Part shown: positions 49,307 to 64,000 of the stretch, piece by piece
How the letters are laid out: each line of letters begins with the position of its first letter
Numbering within the stretch: the stretch's first letter is position 1
Source of the DNA: an uncultured delta proteobacterium
Lineage (GTDB): Bacteria; Desulfobacterota; Syntrophobacteria; Syntrophobacterales; Syntrophobacteraceae
Direction: 5' to 3'
DNA: 64,000 nt
NCBI GenBank assembly: GCA_963808625.1
Contig: CAWEHK010000043.1
Coordinates: 1-64,000 of the forward strand
Made by a program: the position numbers and the translations under genes
The notes under the pieces: generated by a model
Seen by the model: only the letters and a program-made list of their open reading frames with translations
Told to the model about the DNA's origin: nothing
The model's database searches: none

Positions 49307-49449
49307 TAATACTGCAACGAGGTTTGCGCAGGGGGCCTTAATCTGCGGGGCAGGCTTTCCAGCCTGCCTTTTGGCCGCTTCGGCATGGCAGGCTGGAAAG
49401 CCTGCCCCACGCGGATTGGAGTTTCACACAAAGTACCGTTGTAGTACTA
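49307..49449. mobile_element. MITE-like element, second copy
   Basis: TAATACTGCAACG...CGTTGTAGTACTA ends; terminal CTA (49447-49449) is the TAG stop of the adjacent minus-strand gene. Confidence 0.7.
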
Positions 49450-49893
49450 AGGTTTCTTCAGTTGGTTGATATCGATGGGGAGTGCCGCCGTCCGGCCTTC
49501 CTGAAGGTCAAAAAAAGCCCTGAGTTCGGCCTCAGTCAGCACCTTGGCATACTCGTCCACGAGGTATCCTGCCAAACCCTGGGCATCCCGGGCCAGCCCC
49601 TTTGCGAAAAACCTTCGCAGGGGGTACTTGAGGGCAAGCCAGAGCCGCCTCTTTTCCACCTTCTGCTGGATGGCCCAGAGGGCCTCGCGACGCGCCTGCG
49701 GGAAGTCACACCCCAGGCGGTGGTCGATGGCAAGGTCCAGCTCCAACCGGCGCACCTGCCTCTCCTGGTCCTGGGTGGGCAGGGGAGGCAAGTCGCGGTG
49801 AAGCTCGATTATCCTTCTGTCGTATTCTTCGTCGCTAAGACGAGGGCCGTACTTAAATTCTTCCTGCATCGTCCGGACCCGTTCCTTCGCCAT
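49447..49893 (-). CDS. Hypothetical protein
   Basis: 148-aa ORF starting 26 bp downstream of 49920-50804, same strand. Confidence 0.6.
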   Translation of the reverse strand: MAKERVRTMQEEFKYGPRLSDEEYDRRIIELHRDLPPLPTQDQERQVRRLELDLAIDHRLGCDFPQARREALWAIQQKVEKRRLWLALKYPLRRFFAKGLARDAQGLAGYLVDEYAKVLTEAELRAFFDLQEGRTAALPIDINQLKKP

Positions 49894-49919
49894 GTTGTTT
49901 CACGAGGCGGCAGACCAGT

Positions 49920-50804
49920 TTATTTTTCGCCGTATGCTTGCGCGACGATACTTGGGTCAGCCAGGACCACTCTTTCGCTGCGTTTCAGTCCAAAGAGCAA
50001 TTTGTACTGAGCCGCTTTGAGAGCGCCGGCTGCGGCGTCCTGGAAGAGAACCGTCTCCCGGTTGAAGGCTTCCACGAATTCGCCGACCTTCATTTCTCCG
50101 CTGTTGAACAAATCCTCGACTTTCATCCGCGACCACTCCGCCGACAAGCGTACATCCCGCAGTTTGGCAGACACGGACTTATCAAGTTGGGCACCCAGGC
50201 TGTATTCTACCTGGTACATGAACAGCCTGAGATGGAAGTTCGCCAGGTCAGGCCCGGCCAATCCCCTGGCAGACCGGAGTACGCGATCATCCTTCTTGTA
50301 GATGGCCAGTACGCCCTTAATGTATTTTTGCTCACTCTCACTCTCCTCTGCCAACCGAGCGAGGGCCTTTGGGCTGGCCTTCTTGACTGCCGGCTGTGCT
50401 TCAACGCATTCCGGAAGGTCGCCGGTCACCTCAGGGTGCTGATGGAAAGGCGACAGGCATGTGCCGAGCGGACCCCTCGGCCGGCCGTAGGTGCCGTACA
50501 TGGCTTCTGAGACACCATATCCGCGAGCGCCTCGAACCGTAATGGTCGCCGGAAAAAGAATGCGGTTGGCAGCCTGGTGGCATACGCCGTTTATGAGATA
50601 GCACTTGATGCCGGCGCGTTCGTCCGGTCCGGCGATGGCATCAGCCCGCTTGGTGCTGCCGGTGCCCCGGCGCAGTTCGGTGCCACCCGTCTTGCCCCCC
50701 CAGCACCCCCAGGCCTTACCGCCCGTCCCGCACATGACGTACGTATGGTCGGCAAGGTCCGCAAACAAATCTGTCGGATACGTCATTACCACAAGTGTTC
50801 CCAT
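49920..50804 (-). CDS. Hypothetical protein with putative His/Cys papain-like N-terminal domain
   Basis: DHTYV...WGCWG...YLINGVCHQAANRIL; helical C-terminal half. Confidence 0.65.
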   Translation of the reverse strand: MGTLVVMTYPTDLFADLADHTYVMCGTGGKAWGCWGGKTGGTELRRGTGSTKRADAIAGPDERAGIKCYLINGVCHQAANRILFPATITVRGARGYGVSEAMYGTYGRPRGPLGTCLSPFHQHPEVTGDLPECVEAQPAVKKASPKALARLAEESESEQKYIKGVLAIYKKDDRVLRSARGLAGPDLANFHLRLFMYQVEYSLGAQLDKSVSAKLRDVRLSAEWSRMKVEDLFNSGEMKVGEFVEAFNRETVLFQDAAAGALKAAQYKLLFGLKRSERVVLADPSIVAQAYGEK

Positions 50805-51111
50805 CGATTCATTTCTCCTTTCTTCGACCAGGATTCGTCTTTTCCAGCCCACAGGAAAAAAGTCGACCGCGCCCATTTCGGTGGTAAAGCTGGTTTTCTC
50901 AACAGAACTTCGATAGAGTAGATGCTCCGCATGGGAAATGCGATGACGCCGAAGGAGTCAACTTCAATTTCGCTGGGCCGTGCCCGAGAAAAACCGAGAG
51001 TGAAAAAAACAGACGAGTACTTGTCAGTTGAGAACACCCCCAATAGAGACCGAAATGAAGGCAATGTCAACTCATATCAGTCGAAGAGAGTCTTCTTGAA
51101 AGGAACGATAG

Positions 51112-55920: not shown

Positions 55921-56835
55921 ATGAAGGTCCTCTACTCTTCCGACACGCATGTGCATCCGGGTCACCTTCGCCGGTTCCTGCAAGCGGCGAGAGAACTCGC
56001 GCCGCAGCTCCTCATCATCGGGGGTGACATCATTCCGGACTGGAAAGGATCAATCGCCGCATCCATTGAACCTCATAAACTCTGGGTACGGGATGTATTG
56101 CTGCCCCGGCTCCGGGAATTCCGCATTGCCCACAGCGAGGCAAGGGTTCTTATCGACCTGGGAAATGACGACATTGCCGCTGCCAGGCCCCTGATGGAAG
56201 CGGCTGACGGCAGCGACCTCGACCTGCTCCACCTGCGCGTGACAAAGGTGAGCGAGAATTTGGCGGTCTTGGGCTACATGGCGGTGAATCCGACGCCCTT
56301 CTTGATCAAGGACGCGGAAAAACCCGACTGCCGGGACCACGACGGCCTTTCCGACCGGCGAGTCGCAAGAGCCGGCTACGTTACCCACTCGGGCGCAGCC
56401 CTGCCGCACGTTCTGGATCCTTCAGCCGGCACCATCGAGGACGATCTGGCGGCGCTTTCTTCGACCATGGAAGACCCCCGGTGGGGCGATTCCTCTTTCA
56501 TCTTTGTGTGTCACGCACCCCCGAAAGATACTGCCCTTGACACGATCCAGAGCGGGCTCCATGTCGGCAGCCTGGCGGTGAGGCGCTTTATCGAACGCTG
56601 GAGCGGCATCGGAAGACTGATCCTCTCTCTCCATGGGCACATCCACGAAGCGCCCTGGAAGAGCGGGCGGGCCTGGCAGGTTATCGGCGACGTCCCCTGC
56701 TTCAACGTCGGTCAGACCGCGAAAATGCTTCGCGCCTTGCTCGTGAACACGGAAGCCCTTCCCGACTCAGCGCGGCTGGTCACCGTCAGCCGTGATGGGC
56801 AAGTAACCGTTGGGGGCGAGGGGGAATGGCTGTGA
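55921..56835 (+). CDS. Icc-like metallophosphoesterase
   Basis: SDTH, GGD, GNDD, HAPP.DT.LD, HVGS.AVR, LHGHIHE, N.G. Confidence 0.85.
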   Translation: MKVLYSSDTHVHPGHLRRFLQAARELAPQLLIIGGDIIPDWKGSIAASIEPHKLWVRDVLLPRLREFRIAHSEARVLIDLGNDDIAAARPLMEAADGSDLDLLHLRVTKVSENLAVLGYMAVNPTPFLIKDAEKPDCRDHDGLSDRRVARAGYVTHSGAALPHVLDPSAGTIEDDLAALSSTMEDPRWGDSSFIFVCHAPPKDTALDTIQSGLHVGSLAVRRFIERWSGIGRLILSLHGHIHEAPWKSGRAWQVIGDVPCFNVGQTAKMLRALLVNTEALPDSARLVTVSRDGQVTVGGEGEWL

Positions 56836-57530
56836 GTCGTTGCCAGTCGGAACATGACTGCCCTAAAAGCTACCGGCCAGTATACAAGGCGGTGTGGGAA
56901 GAGAGTGACTGGCTGCCACTCGGAACATGAATGCCCTGAAAGGGCTGTATAGAACAGCCCAGGGTCAGCAACCGCGCCACCCTGGGAGGAGAAAAGCCCA
57001 ATCCTTTTTGCCTTTACCCTGAAAGGGTTGGATGAATCGCAGTGCCGCTGTGTTCTATGCAACTCCTTCAGGCTAGTACACGTGGGCCGAAATAAGCCAG
57101 TTCCGGTGGGCACGGTGAAGCTGTGCCCACCCTACAGTGTTCCCGGATCCGTAGGGTGGGCAGGTTTTTTTGCCCACCGCAAACATGCACGAACTTATGC
57201 CCATGTGCACTAGATGTTCGTGTTGCACTCGAATGGTCACCGTCAGCCCTGATGCGCAAATCACCGTTGTGGATGCAGGGGGAATGGCTGTGAGTCGTTG
57301 CCAGTCGGAACATGACTGCCATGAAAGCTACCGGCCAGTATACAAGGCGGTGTGGGAAGAGAGTGACTGGCTGCCAATCGGAACATGAATGCCCTGAAAG
57401 GGCTGCATAGAATAGCCCAGGGTCAGCAAACGCGCCACCCTGGGAGGAGAAAAGCCCAATCCCTTTTGCCTTTACCCTGAAAGGGTTGGATAAATCGCGG
57501 CACCGGTTTGGTTTATGCAACCCCTTCAGG
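56777..57530. repeat. Direct duplication of ~295 bp (56777-57071 and 57234-57530) including the 3' end of the phosphoesterase gene
   Basis: Both copies read tggtcaccgtcagcc...gggggaatggctgtgagtcgttgccagtcggaacatgactgcc...tttaccctgaaagggttggat...cttcagg. Confidence 0.85.
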
Positions 57531-57748
57531 GTAAATGTCTTTGTTGTACCTGGCTTCCCAGGGTGGCGCTATCGCTGACCCTGGGCTGACTTATCGAGCC
57601 CCTTCAGGGCAAAGAAATCAGGTTGATACATTTGGGGTGGTGTTTGAAGGCAGGCTGGAAAGCCTGCCCCACATCCTGGCTGCGGCGGACAACGGGCTCC
57701 GACAGGAACCGGGAAACGCCCTCTATGACCGTGCGTCGCACACTCCTC

Positions 57749-57815: not shown

Positions 57816-57884
57816 TCGATACAAGCATCCGGGACTGGCGGAAGCGCCTGCGCCAAGAGCCGGAACTGCCAAGGGTACAAGGGC

Positions 57885-60800
57885 TCAAGGGCCAAGGGCA
57901 ACATCCCTGGAGAGGCGAAAGCCCAAGTTGTTGTCGCGGACGTCGGGCAAGTTGCCGTAGCGAATCGCCGACCGGCAGGACTGCGCAACGTTGAACCAGC
58001 TGCCGCCGCGGACCACCCGATGGGAGCCCCGCGGGTCATCAACCCAGGGGCGCCCATCGTCGGGCGCACCGTTGTAGCTGCTGTGCGAATCATCCTCGGT
58101 CCATTCCCAAACATTGCCGTGCATGTCGTACAGCCCAAAACGGTTGGGCTCCTTCTCCCCGACGGCATGGGTCTGGTCGCCGGAATTCGCCTCATACCAG
58201 GCCGCCCTTTTCAGATCGTCCTCCGTGTCACCAGTATAATATCGAGTGGTCGTCCCGGCCCGGCAGGCAAACTCCCACTCGGCCTCGCTCGGCAACCGCA
58301 AACCGGCCCACTCCGCATAGCCTTGAGCATCCTCCCAACTCACACCCACCACCGGCTGCCGGGGCTGGTTGAAACGCCGGTCAGCCCAGTACCCCGGTTC
58401 GACTATCCTCTGGTTTTCCTTCAAAAACTGCGCGTACTGTTCGTTGGTCACCGGGTAGCGGCCCATGTAGAAATTCGGCACTCGCACCTCGTGACGCGGC
58501 CCTTCGTCATCCCAACGGCCCTCTTCCGTTTCGAGCGACCCCATCATGAAGACGCCCCCGGGAATCCTCACCAATTCGTAGCCGCCCCCCTCAGCGAAGA
58601 CCACATCCTGCTGCGCCTGCCTGCTGCGCTCGGCAAGCCAGTTGCGGATGTCCGCCGATGGGTGCTGCACAAGGCCTGGGCGTAGCCTTCAACCGCCCCG
58701 ACATCCAGGCGTTCCAACACCTGTAGCGCCAGGAGTTGCCGCCGCCATAGGTCCGGGTCGTTCCCGTCGACCGCTTTCAGCAGTTCGACAAAGGGCTCGG
58801 GACTCTTCCCTGCGGCATCGTCAAGACACATCTCGACCAGGTGTGAGAACTCGGCAAACGCCGGCTGACGGAGCACTTCGCGCATGTATGGCGTGAACAG
58901 GAGAATCTTTCTCGATCGCCAGCAAGAGCAGCCCCACTTCCTGCCACCAGGAATCCCCAAAGTGGCTGGCTAAGTCGCACAACGCGTGTTGGTCACCTTC
59001 GAAGGCACGGCGATGGATCTCCCTGGCCGCCAGATACTCCTGAAATCCCAGGTGCATGAAGCCGTATTGCTCGTGGTCCCAGCCGGTCAGCAGACCACTT
59101 TCATCCCGAATGGTGCGCAGAAATGCGTCGCACTGAGTCCGCTCCGCTTCCTCCGAGACAGCCAGGAGACCAACTTACGGATGCCGCTCAGGGACTTCTC
59201 TGTGCTGCCCCAGGACCATTTCGTCTCTTTCAAAGCCGGCTCGATATGGGGCGCCAGTTCAGCCGCCTTCGCTCGGGTTCGCCCCTCCTCGCTGTGGAGC
59301 CACAGGGCCGTCGGCTGCAGCACGCGCCGCCCGGCTTCGGCGCTGACGCTGACCGGTAAGCGCTTGTTTTCCGCCACCGCTCCAGCAACACCTCGATGCA
59401 TTCCTCATACAGCTGTGCGCGCTTGTGAGGCAAACCTCCCTGGTGGCGGTGCACCAGACAGATATTGGTCAGCAGCAAGGGATTGCGCGTCAACTCGAAC
59501 ACCCGACGGGCGCGAAATTCCGGTTCCCGCAATTTCTCTATGAGGTTGTCAGCCTTTTCCCTGGCGATCCCTTCAGCCTGCTCAGGATCTTTTCCCAGCT
59601 CTTTTTCGACGATTCGATACCAGTTGGTAACAAATCGCTCCATCTGGTCGCCGCTCAAAGGGCGAATGTGCATCTCGAGAAAATCTTCGCTCAACCGCAC
59701 GCTGGGGCTATAGCCTGCAAAGCGGCTGGTTACAACAAACAGGCAGGTGGGGTGAGACTTCAGGGCATCACCGATCCATCTCGCCACCCGTTCCCGCAGA
59801 GGAAGGTCCGCCACTTCATCCAGACCATCCAGTAAAAACAGCAGATTCCCACGGTTGAGCAGACGATCTCCAAACCCGCGCCGGGTTTGGAGATGGGGAC
59901 TGTCCAACTGGCTCTGGATGAAAGCCTCCAGCCCGTGGTCAAGGTCGCGCAGGTCCCGAAGGGGCAAGAATACCGGCAATATGTCCGCAGGCAGGGACGT
60001 GTTCTTACGCCCTCCTGGCAGGCACCAGAGCAACAAGCGTTTCAGGTGCGTGGTCTTTCCGGACCCTGGGTCACCGAGGATGACCACTCCCCTTCTGCAG
60101 CGCATTTCTAACTGGCGAAAGGCTTCCGGCAGAGAAATCTCGATGGCCGCATCACACTCCCGCAGGGCTTTTTCAGCATGGTCCGCATCGGCGAAACATT
60201 TATCCGCCACCGGTCTGAGGTCCACCATGGCACGCAGAGGAATGTAGATGTCTTCAATGTCGATGGACACTCTAAGCTCAGTGACGAAACCGGTCACCGG
60301 CAATTTGGCATGGACGGCACCCGCCTTCAAACAATAACGGCGGATCTCTTCTTCAAGCGGCTCACCATCTCCCTCGCGGTCAGCGCGCCAATCCTGCAAT
60401 GCCTTGAGCACCTTGGCCCCAAGGTTCGTCTCGGTGAACCGGGCCGGCATTTGATCCAGAGACAGGCGAGCTTTGAAGGCAGCAAGCTTGTCCTGTTTGA
60501 TCCACTTTTCGGGTCCTGGGTCACAGTCTTTTTCAGAATCGAACACCGTGGATTGCGGCACAAACATCAATCGTTCTCTGGCGGCATCGTACTCCATCTC
60601 GGTGATGGACGTGTCGCTGTCCTCCGGTATCCAGCCGTAGCACCAGGCGATGATCCCGACCAGCACGTCCGCCTCGCGGGCGTAGCGCAGGCATTCGTCG
60701 ACCGTCGGGCGGGTGGTGGCGGTAAAGATTTCCATGCCATGCCAAACCATGTCGGCCATCGTGATGGCCTCCTCGACCACTTTGCGCCTTTCGACATTGT

Positions 60801-60885
60801 CCAGGTAGGTGCTCGATACGAAGACTTTATACCGGCGAGGAAAACTCAACGGGGCTTTCTCTGCTGATTCCTTGGTAATTGGCAT
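57885..60885 (-). CDS. DUF4062-NACHT-FGE-sulfatase (CLec) protein, putative DGR target 1 (about four frameshifts)
   Basis: KVFVSSTY.D...GME.F...S.TE.EY (DUF4062); GDPGSGKTT and LLDGLDE (NACHT); NPLLL; FMHLGFQEYLAA; RLPSEAEWEFACR, GLYDMHGNVWEW, RGGSW, GFR (FGE). Confidence 0.85.
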
Positions 60886-61128
60886 AGGATCCTCTGAAGT
60901 AATCCACCAAGTCACACGAACACCTTTTTCATCCACTAATGAACACGAAGACACACCAGGAAGAGAACGGCATAACCAACTCGTACGCATTCATCTTTCT
61001 TCGTGTCTCTTCGTGTCCTTCGTGGCAAAGAAAGTCCTATACTATGAGAGCGAGGACCGTCAAAACATTTCTGGAATAACGACTCGGATCGAGGGGAGGC
61101 CGGGCGGCGATGTTCGAAGAGGCGTGGG

Positions 61129-61206
61129 CGTAGGTTGGGTTTCGTTCTTCGATCAATCACAGCGTTGTAAACCGCAATCATGGCAGGGAACGAAACCCAA
61201 CCTACG
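61129..61206. repeat. REP-like inverted repeat pair truncating the HRDC gene
   Basis: CGTAGGTTGGGTTTCGTTC (61129-61147) and its perfect reverse complement (61188-61206). Confidence 0.8.
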
Positions 61207-61626
61207 AGGTTCGCCGTATTTGGCGGCTTTTCCTTCCCCGATGCCTTCTATGCCGCTGAGCGCCGATCGAGTCGCGGCCTTCAGTCGAATCATTTTGGCA
61301 AGGTGCTTGTTGGTGGCAATCAGGTAAGGGGGAATCCCCTCCATTTTGGCCCTCGCGGCACGCCACTCTTTGAGGGCGTCGAAAGCCTGCCTTTCTACGT
61401 CGTCCAGTTCGAGGCGGGGATCAGGGCCGCGGCTCGGCCGGCGCTTTCATCGTCCGTCTGCGAGCGGTAGGCAAGAACCACCGTGAGGTAGGGAGTGCGG
61501 TCGTGAACAAAGAAGTGCTGCGAGAACTCGATCGACTTCCTTGTCAGCAAGAAACTCCTGAAGCGGCTCGTCACTGAAACCACCGGCATTTTCGGAGAAA
61601 CGAAAGGTGAAGAGTTTCAGCTTCAA
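61153..61626 (-). pseudogene. HRDC-domain protein (DGR accessory type), frameshifted and 3'-truncated
   Basis: RBS AGGAGG, TTG start; MKLKLFTFRF...GGFSDEPLQEFL...HFF...YLTVVLAY...AFDALKEWR..RAKMEGIPPYLIATN...IEGIGEGKAAKYGE then breaks into the REP. Confidence 0.75.
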
Positions 61627-62246
61627 ATCACCGCCCTCCTATCGATAACCCATTCGTTGGCCTGCTCTCATGATGGGCAACCCTGGACACTCAAGCAGGT
61701 GAACCCGCAAGTCTTCTCATAGGGGTTCCGAAATGGCAAAAAAATGCGCTTTCACGGTTATCCCTGCCAACTGTTTCATGTTGGCAAAAAGTCCGGGATC
61801 GTCATTCCCGCATGCTCCAGGCGGGAATCCAGGCGCGTTTTCTCCTCTGGGCTCCCGCCAAAACTGGTCCCGGCAAGCTTTGGGCGGTCAACCCGCAGGG
61901 GTGACGGCCGGAGGACCTTTTGAAACACACCCTTATCCGGGGATGGTAAACGCCAATCCCCCTTTTCCCTTACCCTGAAAGGGTCAGATACATCGTTGTG
62001 GCGGGATGTTTTATGTAACCCCTTCAGGGTAAATGTCCGTATTGTGCCTGGCTTCCCAGGGTGGCGCTATCGCTGACCCTGGGCTAATTTATGCAGCCCC
62101 TTCAGGGCAGGAAAGGTACCTTGATGCGTGTGGGGTGGTGTTGTGACCGCAGGCTGGAAAGCCTGCGCCACCAATTGGCTGCTGCGGGACAATGCGCCCA
62201 CAACAAGTTGGAAGCGCCTGCCATGGTCATGCATCGCACACACCTC

Positions 62247-62313
62247 GCGTCGCTGGAGTCGTGATCAGGCCGCCTGCTGACGCGACGGCGGCCTGATCAC
62301 GACCCAGCGACGC
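62247..62313. other. Long GC-rich hairpin downstream of DGR-like target 2
   Basis: Same arms as 57749-57815 and same 69-nt spacing from the stop; short hairpin CTGGCG-GGAA-CGCCAG at 62333-62348. Confidence 0.8.
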
Positions 62314-62382
62314 TCGCTGCGAGCATCCGGGACTGGCGGGAACGCCAGCGCCAAAAGCCAAAACTGCCAAGGGTACAAGGGC

Positions 62383-64000
62383 TCAAGGGCCAAGAGCAAC
62401 ATCCCTGGAGAGGCGAAAGCCCAGGTCGACGTTGCGGCCGCCGGGCGGGGCGCCGCCGCGAATCGCCGACCGGCAGTTCTGCGCACCGTCGTGCCAGCCG
62501 CCGCCGCGGACCACCCGGTAGGAGCCCCGCGGGTCATCGATCCATGAACGGCCATCGTTGGGCGCACCGTTGTAACTGTCATGCCAATCATCCTCAGTCC
62601 ATTCCCAAACATTGCCGTGCATGTCGTACAGGCCAAAACTGTTCGGCTCCTTTTCACCGACCGGATGAGTCTGCTCGCCGGAATTCGCCTGATACCAGCC
62701 AACCCGAGCCAAATCCTCCTCCGTGTCACCTGAATAAAACCTGGTAGTCGTCCCCGCGCGGCAAGCATACTCCCACTCGGCCTCGCTCGGCAACCGCAAA
62801 CCGGCCCACTCCGCATAGCGTCGAGCCTCCTCCCAGCTCACCCCCACCACCGGCTGCCGGGGCTGGTTGAATCGCCGTTCAGCCCAGGATTCCGGTTCCC
62901 TGACCTCCTGGTTTTCCTTTAAGAATTGCGCGTACTGTTCGTTGGTCACCGGGTAGCGGCCCATATAGAAATCCGGAACGCGCACCTCGTGGAGCGGCTC
63001 TTCCCAATCCAAATGCTCTTCTTCCGATTCCGCTGAGCCCATCCCAAAGACGCCCCCAGGAATTCGCACCAGCTCGTACCCACCCCGCTCAGCGAAGACC
63101 ACATCCTTCTGTGCCTGTCTGCCGCGCTCGGCAAGCCAGTTGCGAATGTCGGGCGAAGGGTGCTGCGCAAGCAGTGGCCGAAGTTTTTCAGCGGCCTCGG
63201 TGTCCAGCCGATCAAGGACCTGCAGCGCCGCAAGCTGCCTTTGCCAAAGGCCCTTCTCGCTGTCGGCGGCAGGGCTGGATGCGGACTCGAACCGCTCACC
63301 TGAAAACAGCCGCCGCCAAAAGCCCATGTTGCTGCGGGGGGCAGTTTCGAGCAATTCGACAAAGGGCTCGCTTGAAGTCTCGGCAGCATCGACCAGGCAC
63401 ATTTCCACGAGGTTGGGAAATTTGGCGAATGCCGGCAGTCTGACCACCTCGCGCATGTATGGCGTGAACAGTGATGGCTCATCGAGCGCCAGCAGCAACA
63501 GCGCAACCTCCTGCCACCAGGATTCCCCGAAGTGGCTTGCCAGGTCGCGCAATACCTGCCGGTCGCCTTCGAAAGCGCGGCGGCGGATCTCCCGCGCCGC
63601 CAAATACTCCTGAAACCCCAGGTGCATGAATCCGTAATGCTCCTGGTCCCAGCCGGTCAGGAGGCCGCTTTCGTCCCGGATGGTGTGGAGGAAATCCTCA
63701 GCGCTGCCCCCCTTCCAGTTGACGGCTTTCAGAGCTGGATCAATGGCGGGCGCCAGTTCGGCAGCCTTGGCCCGGGTCCGCCCCTCTTCCCCGTGCAGCC
63801 AGAGGGCCGCCGGCTGCAGCACCCGCCGCCCCGTCTGAGCGCCAACCCCAACGGGCAGGCCCTTGGCTTTCCGCCAGTGTTCGAGCATGACGTCAATGCA
63901 TTCCTCGTAGAGTCGGGCGCGTCCTTCGGGGAGCTCGCGCCGGTGGCGGTGCACCAGGCAGATGTTGGTCAAAAGCAGCGGGTTGCGCGTCAATTCAAAC
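62383..64000 (-). CDS. NACHT-associated + FGE-sulfatase (CLec) protein, putative DGR target 2 (5' part outside window)
   Basis: TRNPLLLTNICLVH, FMHLGFQEYLAA, RLPSEAEWEYACR, GLYDMHGNVWEW, RGGGW, GFRLSR; colinear paralog of 57885-60885. Confidence 0.88.
   Translation of the reverse strand, partial: FELTRNPLLLTNICLVHRHRRELPEGRARLYEECIDVMLEHWRKAKGLPVGVGAQTGRRVLQPAALWLHGEEGRTRAKAAELAPAIDPALKAVNWKGGSAEDFLHTIRDESGLLTGWDQEHYGFMHLGFQEYLAAREIRRRAFEGDRQVLRDLASHFGESWWQEVALLLLALDEPSLFTPYMREVVRLPAFAKFPNLVEMCLVDAAETSSEPFVELLETAPRSNMGFWRRLFSGERFESASSPAADSEKGLWQRQLAALQVLDRLDTEAAEKLRPLLAQHPSPDIRNWLAERGRQAQKDVVFAERGGYELVRIPGGVFGMGSAESEEEHLDWEEPLHEVRVPDFYMGRYPVTNEQYAQFLKENQEVREPESWAERRFNQPRQPVVGVSWEEARRYAEWAGLRLPSEAEWEYACRAGTTTRFYSGDTEEDLARVGWYQANSGEQTHPVGEKEPNSFGLYDMHGNVWEWTEDDWHDSYNGAPNDGRSWIDDPRGSYRVVRGGGWHDGAQNCRSAIRGGAPPGGRNVDLGFRLSRDVALGP

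Follow-up and report, generated by a model that had tools for sequence, protein, structure and literature searches.

The described systems closest to the locus studied here are the STAND (signal transduction ATPases with numerous domains) NTPase-FGS conflict systems, in which an N-terminal effector (TIR, DRHyd or calcineurin) is joined to a NACHT or nSTAND1 NTPase and a C-terminal FGS/C-type-lectin-fold (CLec) domain; a diversity-generating retroelement (DGR) lies nearby or elsewhere, and one organism can carry several copies with differing NTPases and effectors (Kaur 2021, PMC8195603). Our subject is a pair of tandem genes at the end of a 64,000 nt stretch (the window) of contig C43, CAWEHK010000043.1, from the uncultured delta proteobacterium assembly GCA_963808625.1 (G000); both encode DUF4062-NACHT-CLec proteins ending in a variable region (VR). 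All features listed for the STAND NTPase-FGS systems were also found in G000. Kaur 2021 does not use the name DUF4062, and in the parts of it that were covered, repeats or hairpins 3' of the genes are not analysed. DGR-linked FGS domains had also been described in ternary systems (Kaur 2020). The "antigen receptor type" NACHT proteins with an FGS tip (Kibby 2022, bioRxiv 10.1101/2022.07.19.500537) share the tripartite layout of nucleotide-binding leucine-rich repeat receptors (NLRs), and diversification of the tip by a DGR was proposed for them; DrHyd, TIR and SIR2 are named there as NAD+-targeting effectors, and in the sections of that preprint consulted no test of FGS-tipped members is reported.

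The DGRs of clade 5D resemble the locus: each has a pair of targets, codon positions 1-2 vary, a genome carries several classes of DGR, and remote targets occur. Their hosts in the published datasets include Desulfobacterota, some with NACHT (Doré 2024, PMC10907252). Degenerate loci in which MITE-like (miniature inverted-repeat transposable element) repeats replace the reverse transcriptase (RT) or the template repeat (TR) were also described there, and DGR 4, 5 and 7 of Thiohalocapsa are comparable to the window. The clade 5D combination of two targets, each with a single CLec and a central STAND NTPase, was found in the window genes. The clade 5D VRs vary in reads, whereas those of the window are known from assembled sequence alone, and DUF4062 and HRDC are absent from the nine supplementary files of Doré 2024 that were searched. 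The HRDC-type DGR of Treponema denticola TvpA (Wu 2018, PMC5758913; PDB 2y3c) also has an HRDC accessory gene, an FGE-type (formylglycine-generating enzyme) CLec fold and remote targets, but TvpA is a surface lipoprotein.

This kind of system, including degenerate loci and Desulfobacterota hosts, is therefore already described (Kaur 2021, Kibby 2022, Doré 2024), and the novelty implied by the initial annotation of the locus, which had been made from the sequence alone, is not supported: STAND NTPase-FGS proteins with NAD-processing effectors and near or remote DGRs were known. A literature search that paired diversity-generating retroelement with DUF4062 returned no papers; this is no proof of novelty, as Kaur 2021 names DRHyd effectors and preprint supplements lay outside the search. 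That bacteria hypermutate NLR-like receptors was put forward in publications of 2020-2021 and is still a hypothesis, which the locus leaves unchanged. What the locus illustrates is the decay of such a DGR: we consider it probable that the window holds a degenerate DGR cassette, formerly the mutator of six NLR-like genes.

Variable regions, templates of relatives and 3' elements

The two genes and their VRs are laid out as follows.

57885..60885, minus strand: copy 1, DUF4062-NACHT-helical-CLec gene; four frame breaks, no in-frame stops
60580..60828, minus strand: DUF4062 (TIR-like NADase family) of copy 1; Pfam E=5e-18, PDB 10wc match E=2.4e-6
59617..60087, minus strand: NACHT of copy 1; Pfam E=5e-17, Walker A and Walker B motifs intact
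57912..58577, minus strand: FGE-sulfatase/CLec-fold domain of copy 1; TvpA 2y3c match E=8e-28
57907..58024, minus strand: VR1, extent by likeness to a relative's TR
62383..64000, minus strand: 3' half of copy 2 (end of NACHT, helical part, CLec), continuing past the window
62405..62522, minus strand: VR2

Both copies share the layout DUF4062-NACHT-helical-FGE/CLec. The effector class named DRHyd is one that we take to cover DUF4062. The initial annotation had assigned a DUF4062 to copy 1, where it was confirmed, but copy 2 has one too: this copy extends to about C43:65444 with DUF4062 and NACHT, and its DUF4062 (C43:64038-65498) lies outside the window. The helical regions carry inserts of about 24 codons that differ between the copies (59125-59195 and 63270-63340), both with a basic, amphipathic-looking segment.

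In a gap-free alignment of the segments 57924-58022 and 62422-62520 (both minus strand), 22 of 99 nt differ and 15 codons are affected, with 12 differences at the first, nine at the second and one at the third codon position, which reproduces exactly the counts of the initial annotation. Its remark that the paralogs differ by third-position changes just upstream was borne out as well, since 36 of 65 differences over the 145 codons directly before the VR fall on the third position; within VR codons 947-982 none of 20 does. Comparison of the copies gave pN/pS values (nonsynonymous and synonymous differences per site) of 0.231/0.02 for the VR and 0.102/0.414 for the preceding part of the CLec. 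As in DGR targets, the VRs form the 3'-terminal part of a CLec-fold domain and vary at codon positions 1-2.

The search for further paralogs showed that six G000 genes end in the same VR scaffold: the window pair and those at C37:140650, C43:143842, C50:60850 and C30:8696. Three of them begin with DUF4062-NACHT and two with TIR, and in the remaining one nSTAND1 is preceded by a weakly scoring DUF4062-like domain (E=0.022). The VR scaffold is kept in all six with almost no drift outside adenines (pS 0-0.02), while pS has reached 0.4-0.6 in the flanks; a variant of three bases behind the VR is common to three members.

TR-VR identity was checked with relatives' TRs only, because the system's own TR was not found. 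An exact TR-type pattern gave no stretches in the genome contig collection and four in the metagenome contig collection, three of them one element, and this led to locus L024. When the six G000 VRs were compared with the L024 TR, 27 of 32 variable columns were adenines, a test that is partly circular in that the search pattern had fixed seven adenines. For three TRs found by protein search, variable columns also fell on adenines (L100, 26/29; L075, 25/29; L106, 27/30), with p for the coincidence from 3e-20 (L100) to 4e-16. The earlier proposal that both genes were diversified from one shared TR is supported, and a DGR origin of the VRs is very probably correct. The initial annotation had regarded the lack of a TR in the genome and its close relatives as an argument against a DGR; such a TR was indeed found in neither, yet the TRs of more distant relatives explain the pattern.

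Among the relatives' loci, of which the best 40 of 77 were examined, RT and TR were present in seven (one RT partial), five of these with HRDC and four with Avd, and many of the remaining loci were short contigs or lone targets. Across 18 TR-VR pairs from 10 relatives' loci, non-adenine mismatches were absent from 10 and numbered at most three in 16. The gene order is target-HRDC-Avd-RT-TR in L100 and L075. In L024, an intact 989-aa orthologue is immediately followed by Avd, RT, TR and another NACHT-CLec target. Between the VR of this other target and the TR, 14 of 28 adenines are changed and none of 90 other bases. The named holders of the closest gene relatives agree with the Desulfobacterota label of the assembly. 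In L024 (4155-5402, together with L023) the RT frame of L024 continues through the TR without a stop, so that the TR is translated as a CLec-like tail. At L080:9290 a VR is followed by a TR-like 3' spacer, with no RT match in the locus; this may be a TR fused to, or turned into, a target.

Behind the VRs a second common trait was found.

57870..57900, minus strand: four short tandem CCCTTG-type repeats across the copy 1 stop codon
57749..57815, minus strand: long GC-rich hairpin/cruciform behind VR1, apex GC-GNNA-GC, z=-9.7
62368..62398, minus strand: four short tandem repeats across the copy 2 stop codon
62247..62313, minus strand: hairpin/cruciform behind VR2, z=-8.4

In all six G000 genes the stop codon is followed by four short tandem repeats and then the hairpin. 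Across the lineage, at least three tandem repeats follow 27 of 29 VRs and none of three TRs, and the hairpin apex motif stands behind 22 of 29 VRs, including all six G000 members, and behind none of three TRs. With a stem of at least 10, the apex motif occurs at six places in the genome, five of which are family members. At stem positions 3-10, 118 of 152 cells are paired compared with 83 +/- 5 for shuffled arms (none of 5,000 shuffles reached 118); the motif was defined by eye on the same, mutually related sequences, which makes this statistic a description and not an independent test. The BPP-1 target hairpin likewise lies downstream with a free stem sequence and a constrained loop (Guo 2011, PMC3240598). 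It has a 7-10 bp stem and a GRNA loop 4-34 bp from the VR, whereas here a two-pair GC-GN(N)A-GC cap sits on an internal loop, the stem ranges from 6 to more than 30 bp, and the hairpin lies about 85-180 nt behind the GFR codons, after the four repeats. The hairpin is probably a DGR target-recognition element, and repeats and hairpin together may form the target address. Short tandem repeats over the target stop codon (CTCTG-type or pyrimidine-rich) were also seen at VRs of other DGR lineages (C43:89555 and 97398 of G000, and L087 and L102); such repeats may be a general feature of DGR targets.

State of the cassette and search for a template

Between the two copies the following features were found.

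61210..61626, minus strand: truncated HRDC gene (DGR accessory gene of the lineage); Pfam HRDC E=5.8e-16
61129..61206, strand not assigned: MITE-like inverted-repeat element cutting off the HRDC gene; 11 genome loci
61790..62180, strand not assigned: cluster of dispersed short inverted-repeat elements, the main two with 74 and 94 loci genome-wide

The HRDC gene, which the initial annotation had left out, sits where relatives have Avd, RT and TR. It is 52% identical in amino acids to that of the complete L100 DGR over 139 residues (E=2e-36) and 69% in DNA over 422 nt. It ends about 25 codons early at the inverted-repeat element, and copy 1 starts about 250 nt later. Apart from this remnant no match to RT, Avd or TR was found between the copies, so the window retains the target-HRDC part of the L100/L075 order. 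The locus is regarded as a degenerate DGR cassette because HRDC is cut at the inverted-repeat element and no trace of RT, Avd or TR precedes copy 1. The original layout would have been target-HRDC-(Avd)-RT-TR-target, from which Avd, RT and TR would have been lost, with short inverted-repeat elements now standing at the break. With the core present, the RT would have copied the template RNA and miscopied adenines, and the product would have overwritten the last ~118 nt of the six genes, each followed by the same tandem repeats and hairpin. Behind copy 1, a repeated block at 56712-57620 consists of dispersed inverted-repeat elements from families with 40-62 genome loci.

G000 has four RTs, two of which belong to DGRs. 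One of these DGRs, at C43:89555-100485 (L170), 30 kb past the window, is complete and apparently working: an intact RT stands in the order NACHT-FGE target, Avd, TR, RT, Metallophos-NACHT-FGE target, with a transposase-like gene inside, and the TR shows 0-1 non-adenine mismatches to its own VRs. The other (C38:13596-23266) has HRDC, a frameshifted RT and a TR; two of its targets are local, and probably three more are remote (C12, C33, C37). This TR is poor in adenines and mismatches its targets at 4-16 non-adenine positions, as if it had itself been altered. Both TRs were ruled out as templates of the window VRs, to which they show 27-28/76 (C43) and 22-24/83 (C38) non-adenine mismatches. RT searches of four further genomes (G007, G008, G018, G031) returned distant RTs only (best E=5e-26), a strong match to the L100 TR spacer occurred in one of 400 genomes of the phylum, no RNA run was listed as a match among the sequencing runs, and one DNA run with 5% of words returned short assembled pieces, mostly from other organisms.

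Several results count against the proposed reading. Searches of G000 with blastn, with fuzzy patterns, with relatives' TR spacers and by a generic scan found no third TR, and the TR-type pattern with two mismatches allowed occurred in none of 80 other genomes of the same family. The relatives' TRs differ from the window VRs at 7-17 non-adenine positions, and at one varying column, position 1 of the codon that precedes the GFR motif, three of the five TRs tested have a G.

The alternative that survives best holds that the system is still active, with TR and RT in unassembled DNA or in a subpopulation with an intact locus, serving the six genes in trans. The assembly is only 84.6% complete in 54 contigs; the VR scaffolds, at pS 0-0.02, and the hairpin motif kept in all six genes point to recent rewriting; Doré 2024 (PMC10907252) observed activity in trans as well as degenerate loci with intact structural variants, and remote targets are known (Wu 2018, PMC5758913). 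On the other side, the local core is visibly broken, the TR spacer of relatives left no trace in G000, no TR was seen at the contig end upstream of the C37 copy, and the family-wide search was negative. No matching TR was found in the 85%-complete assembly or the 80 family genomes, and continued activity appears to us possible but doubtful. The present-tense "hypermutable" of the initial annotation is not supported, as searches of the assembly recovered neither a matching TR nor a matching RT and the cassette at the locus is degenerate. We lean slightly towards true loss of the matching TR and RT. More speculative, and in our view rather unlikely, is the idea that one template, retained by part of the population or in DNA missing from the assembly, goes on rewriting the six scattered sensors, which represent four architectures (DUF4062-NACHT, DUF4062-like-nSTAND1 with a transmembrane segment, and two TIR forms) via a lineage-specific cis code of tandem heptamer repeats and the GC-GN(N)A-GC-capped cruciform. 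If it were true, the DUF4062-NACHT-CLec family would represent single-gene "adaptive" NLRs with a measurable NADase output, and the DGR-immune-sensor hypothesis would be directly testable.

Proteins and proposed function

The protein family is large, with 937 homologues at E<=1e-50 among 8,000 scored, and DUF4062, NACHT and CLec occur together in 91 of the best 120 homologues. In an alignment of 82 members, both Walker motifs (A and B) and a single glutamate of DUF4062 (82/82) are invariant, and fixed and highly variable columns alternate in the VR. The glutamate is present in all three DUF4062-NACHT copies of the genome. It aligns with the alanine of the KpSwz E97A construct (PDB 10wc; the numbering offset is inferred), and KpSwz, a DUF4062 NADase, requires E97 for NAD+ depletion and defence (Swarozyc and Evangelion preprints, 10.64898/2026.05.01.722283 and 10.64898/2026.06.25.731849). 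These NADases share the DUF4062 core with its conserved glutamate-tyrosine motif; unlike the window proteins they are, as described in the parts of the preprints consulted, short proteins of DUF4062 and auxiliary domains with a fixed trigger (the phage portal for KpSwz), and have no NACHT switch, CLec tip or DGR. On this alignment the conserved glutamate of both window copies is likely catalytic.

An alignment-based model of the L024 orthologue (pLDDT 86, pTM 0.69), which replaced a single-sequence fold (pLDDT 37.5), matches FGE-fold proteins including TvpA, and NLRC4 (E=9e-15). The window proteins share the effector-NACHT-sensor layout with intact Walker A/B of STAND NTPase-FGS proteins and bacterial NLRs. 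Database labels that call these proteins sulfatase-modifying enzymes are misleading: for an identity as SUMF1, EgtB or PvdO, the NCBIfam enzyme models all scored far below cut-off, and the would-be FGE active-site segment is the hypervariable segment. We infer a role for the proteins as NLR-like sensors in abortive infection. A ligand from a phage or mobile element would bind the variable CLec tip, the NACHT would exchange nucleotide and oligomerise, and the clustered DUF4062 domains would destroy NAD+ and thereby kill the infected cell; the genes most likely form a fixed repertoire of differently tuned sensors. An anti-phage NADase function is moderately favoured.

Weighing against it, no PADLOC model matches, CLec-tipped STAND proteins await experimental test (Doré 2024, PMC10907252), and TEP1 is the sole human DUF4062-NACHT protein named as active in the part of the Osinski preprint consulted. 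The first two of these points also suit the possibility that the genes are DGR targets used for signalling or cell-cell recognition instead of anti-phage defence; a signalling role has been proposed for DGR targets of cyanobacteria (cited in Doré 2024, PMC10907252). This appears unlikely to us: the N-termini are of types, DUF4062 (three clear, one weak) and TIR (two), that act as cell-death effectors in tested systems, and a weak likeness to the anti-phage NACHT protein EruA was detected (E=8e-9, far below its cut-off). The family offers a practical test case, with sensor, switch and a now-characterised NADase in one polypeptide and intact orthologues in complete cassettes (L024, L075, L087).

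Frame breaks and integrity of the genes

The initial annotation had missed frameshifts in both copies, which occur at the assembly's own error rate. By comparison with L083, four breaks were located in copy 1 (near 59366, 59125-59195, 58901 and 58686) and four in copy 2, all past the window edge. Four breaks in 3.0 kb and four in 3.1 kb compare with about one per kb in housekeeping genes (P ~0.4 per window copy). The baseline used was determined at the DNA level from 35 housekeeping genes, whose 28.8 kb contained 31 breaks; once a tuf match that had been counted twice was taken out, 28 breaks in 28.1 kb were left. In the sensor genes every break is an indel of 1-2 nt, one of them bordering a 71-nt insert, and this is the same type of error that splits rpoB and rpoC; rpoB lies in five pieces in the assembly.

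The possibility that both genes are genuine pseudogenes, in decay since the DGR was lost, would agree with these breaks and with the truncation of HRDC by the repeat element. Further figures speak for it and against intact genes: the third full copy (C37) has eight breaks (P=0.018 at baseline), the three copies together have 16 compared with 9.8 expected, a mild excess (P=0.04), and a protein-level baseline (14 in 30.3 kb, 0.46 per kb) would enlarge the excess. This baseline was set aside; it misses compensating pairs and took in off-frame open reading frames (ORFs). The character of the breaks, shared with rpoB and rpoC, the lack of any nonsense codon in ~2,900 codons and dN/dS values of 0.07-0.18 (copy 1 and copy 2: DUF4062 0.15, NACHT 0.12, CLec before the VR 0.18) argue against decay, which we rate as rather improbable. 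Errors of the assembly are the most likely cause of the frame breaks, and the genes are probably intact in the cell.

Positive selection on a binding loop with gene conversion among paralogues and no DGR at all, although it would fit the failure to find a matching TR/RT in the assembly and the shared three-base variant, which suggests some conversion, is extremely improbable, since variable columns coincide with adenines of independent TRs, the target is adjoined by an HRDC gene most like those of DGRs, and orthologues are direct DGR targets.

An error rate of about one indel per kb in the whole assembly, even in rpoB and rpoC, calls for caution with apparent pseudogenes elsewhere in this genome. 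At C54:90526-94050, a frameshifted long RT gene unlike DGR RTs is followed by a segment that looks nitrilase-like by eye; this RT is possibly defence-associated. Within the window, two ORFs of 318 aa and 148 aa at 49447-50876 have no Pfam match.

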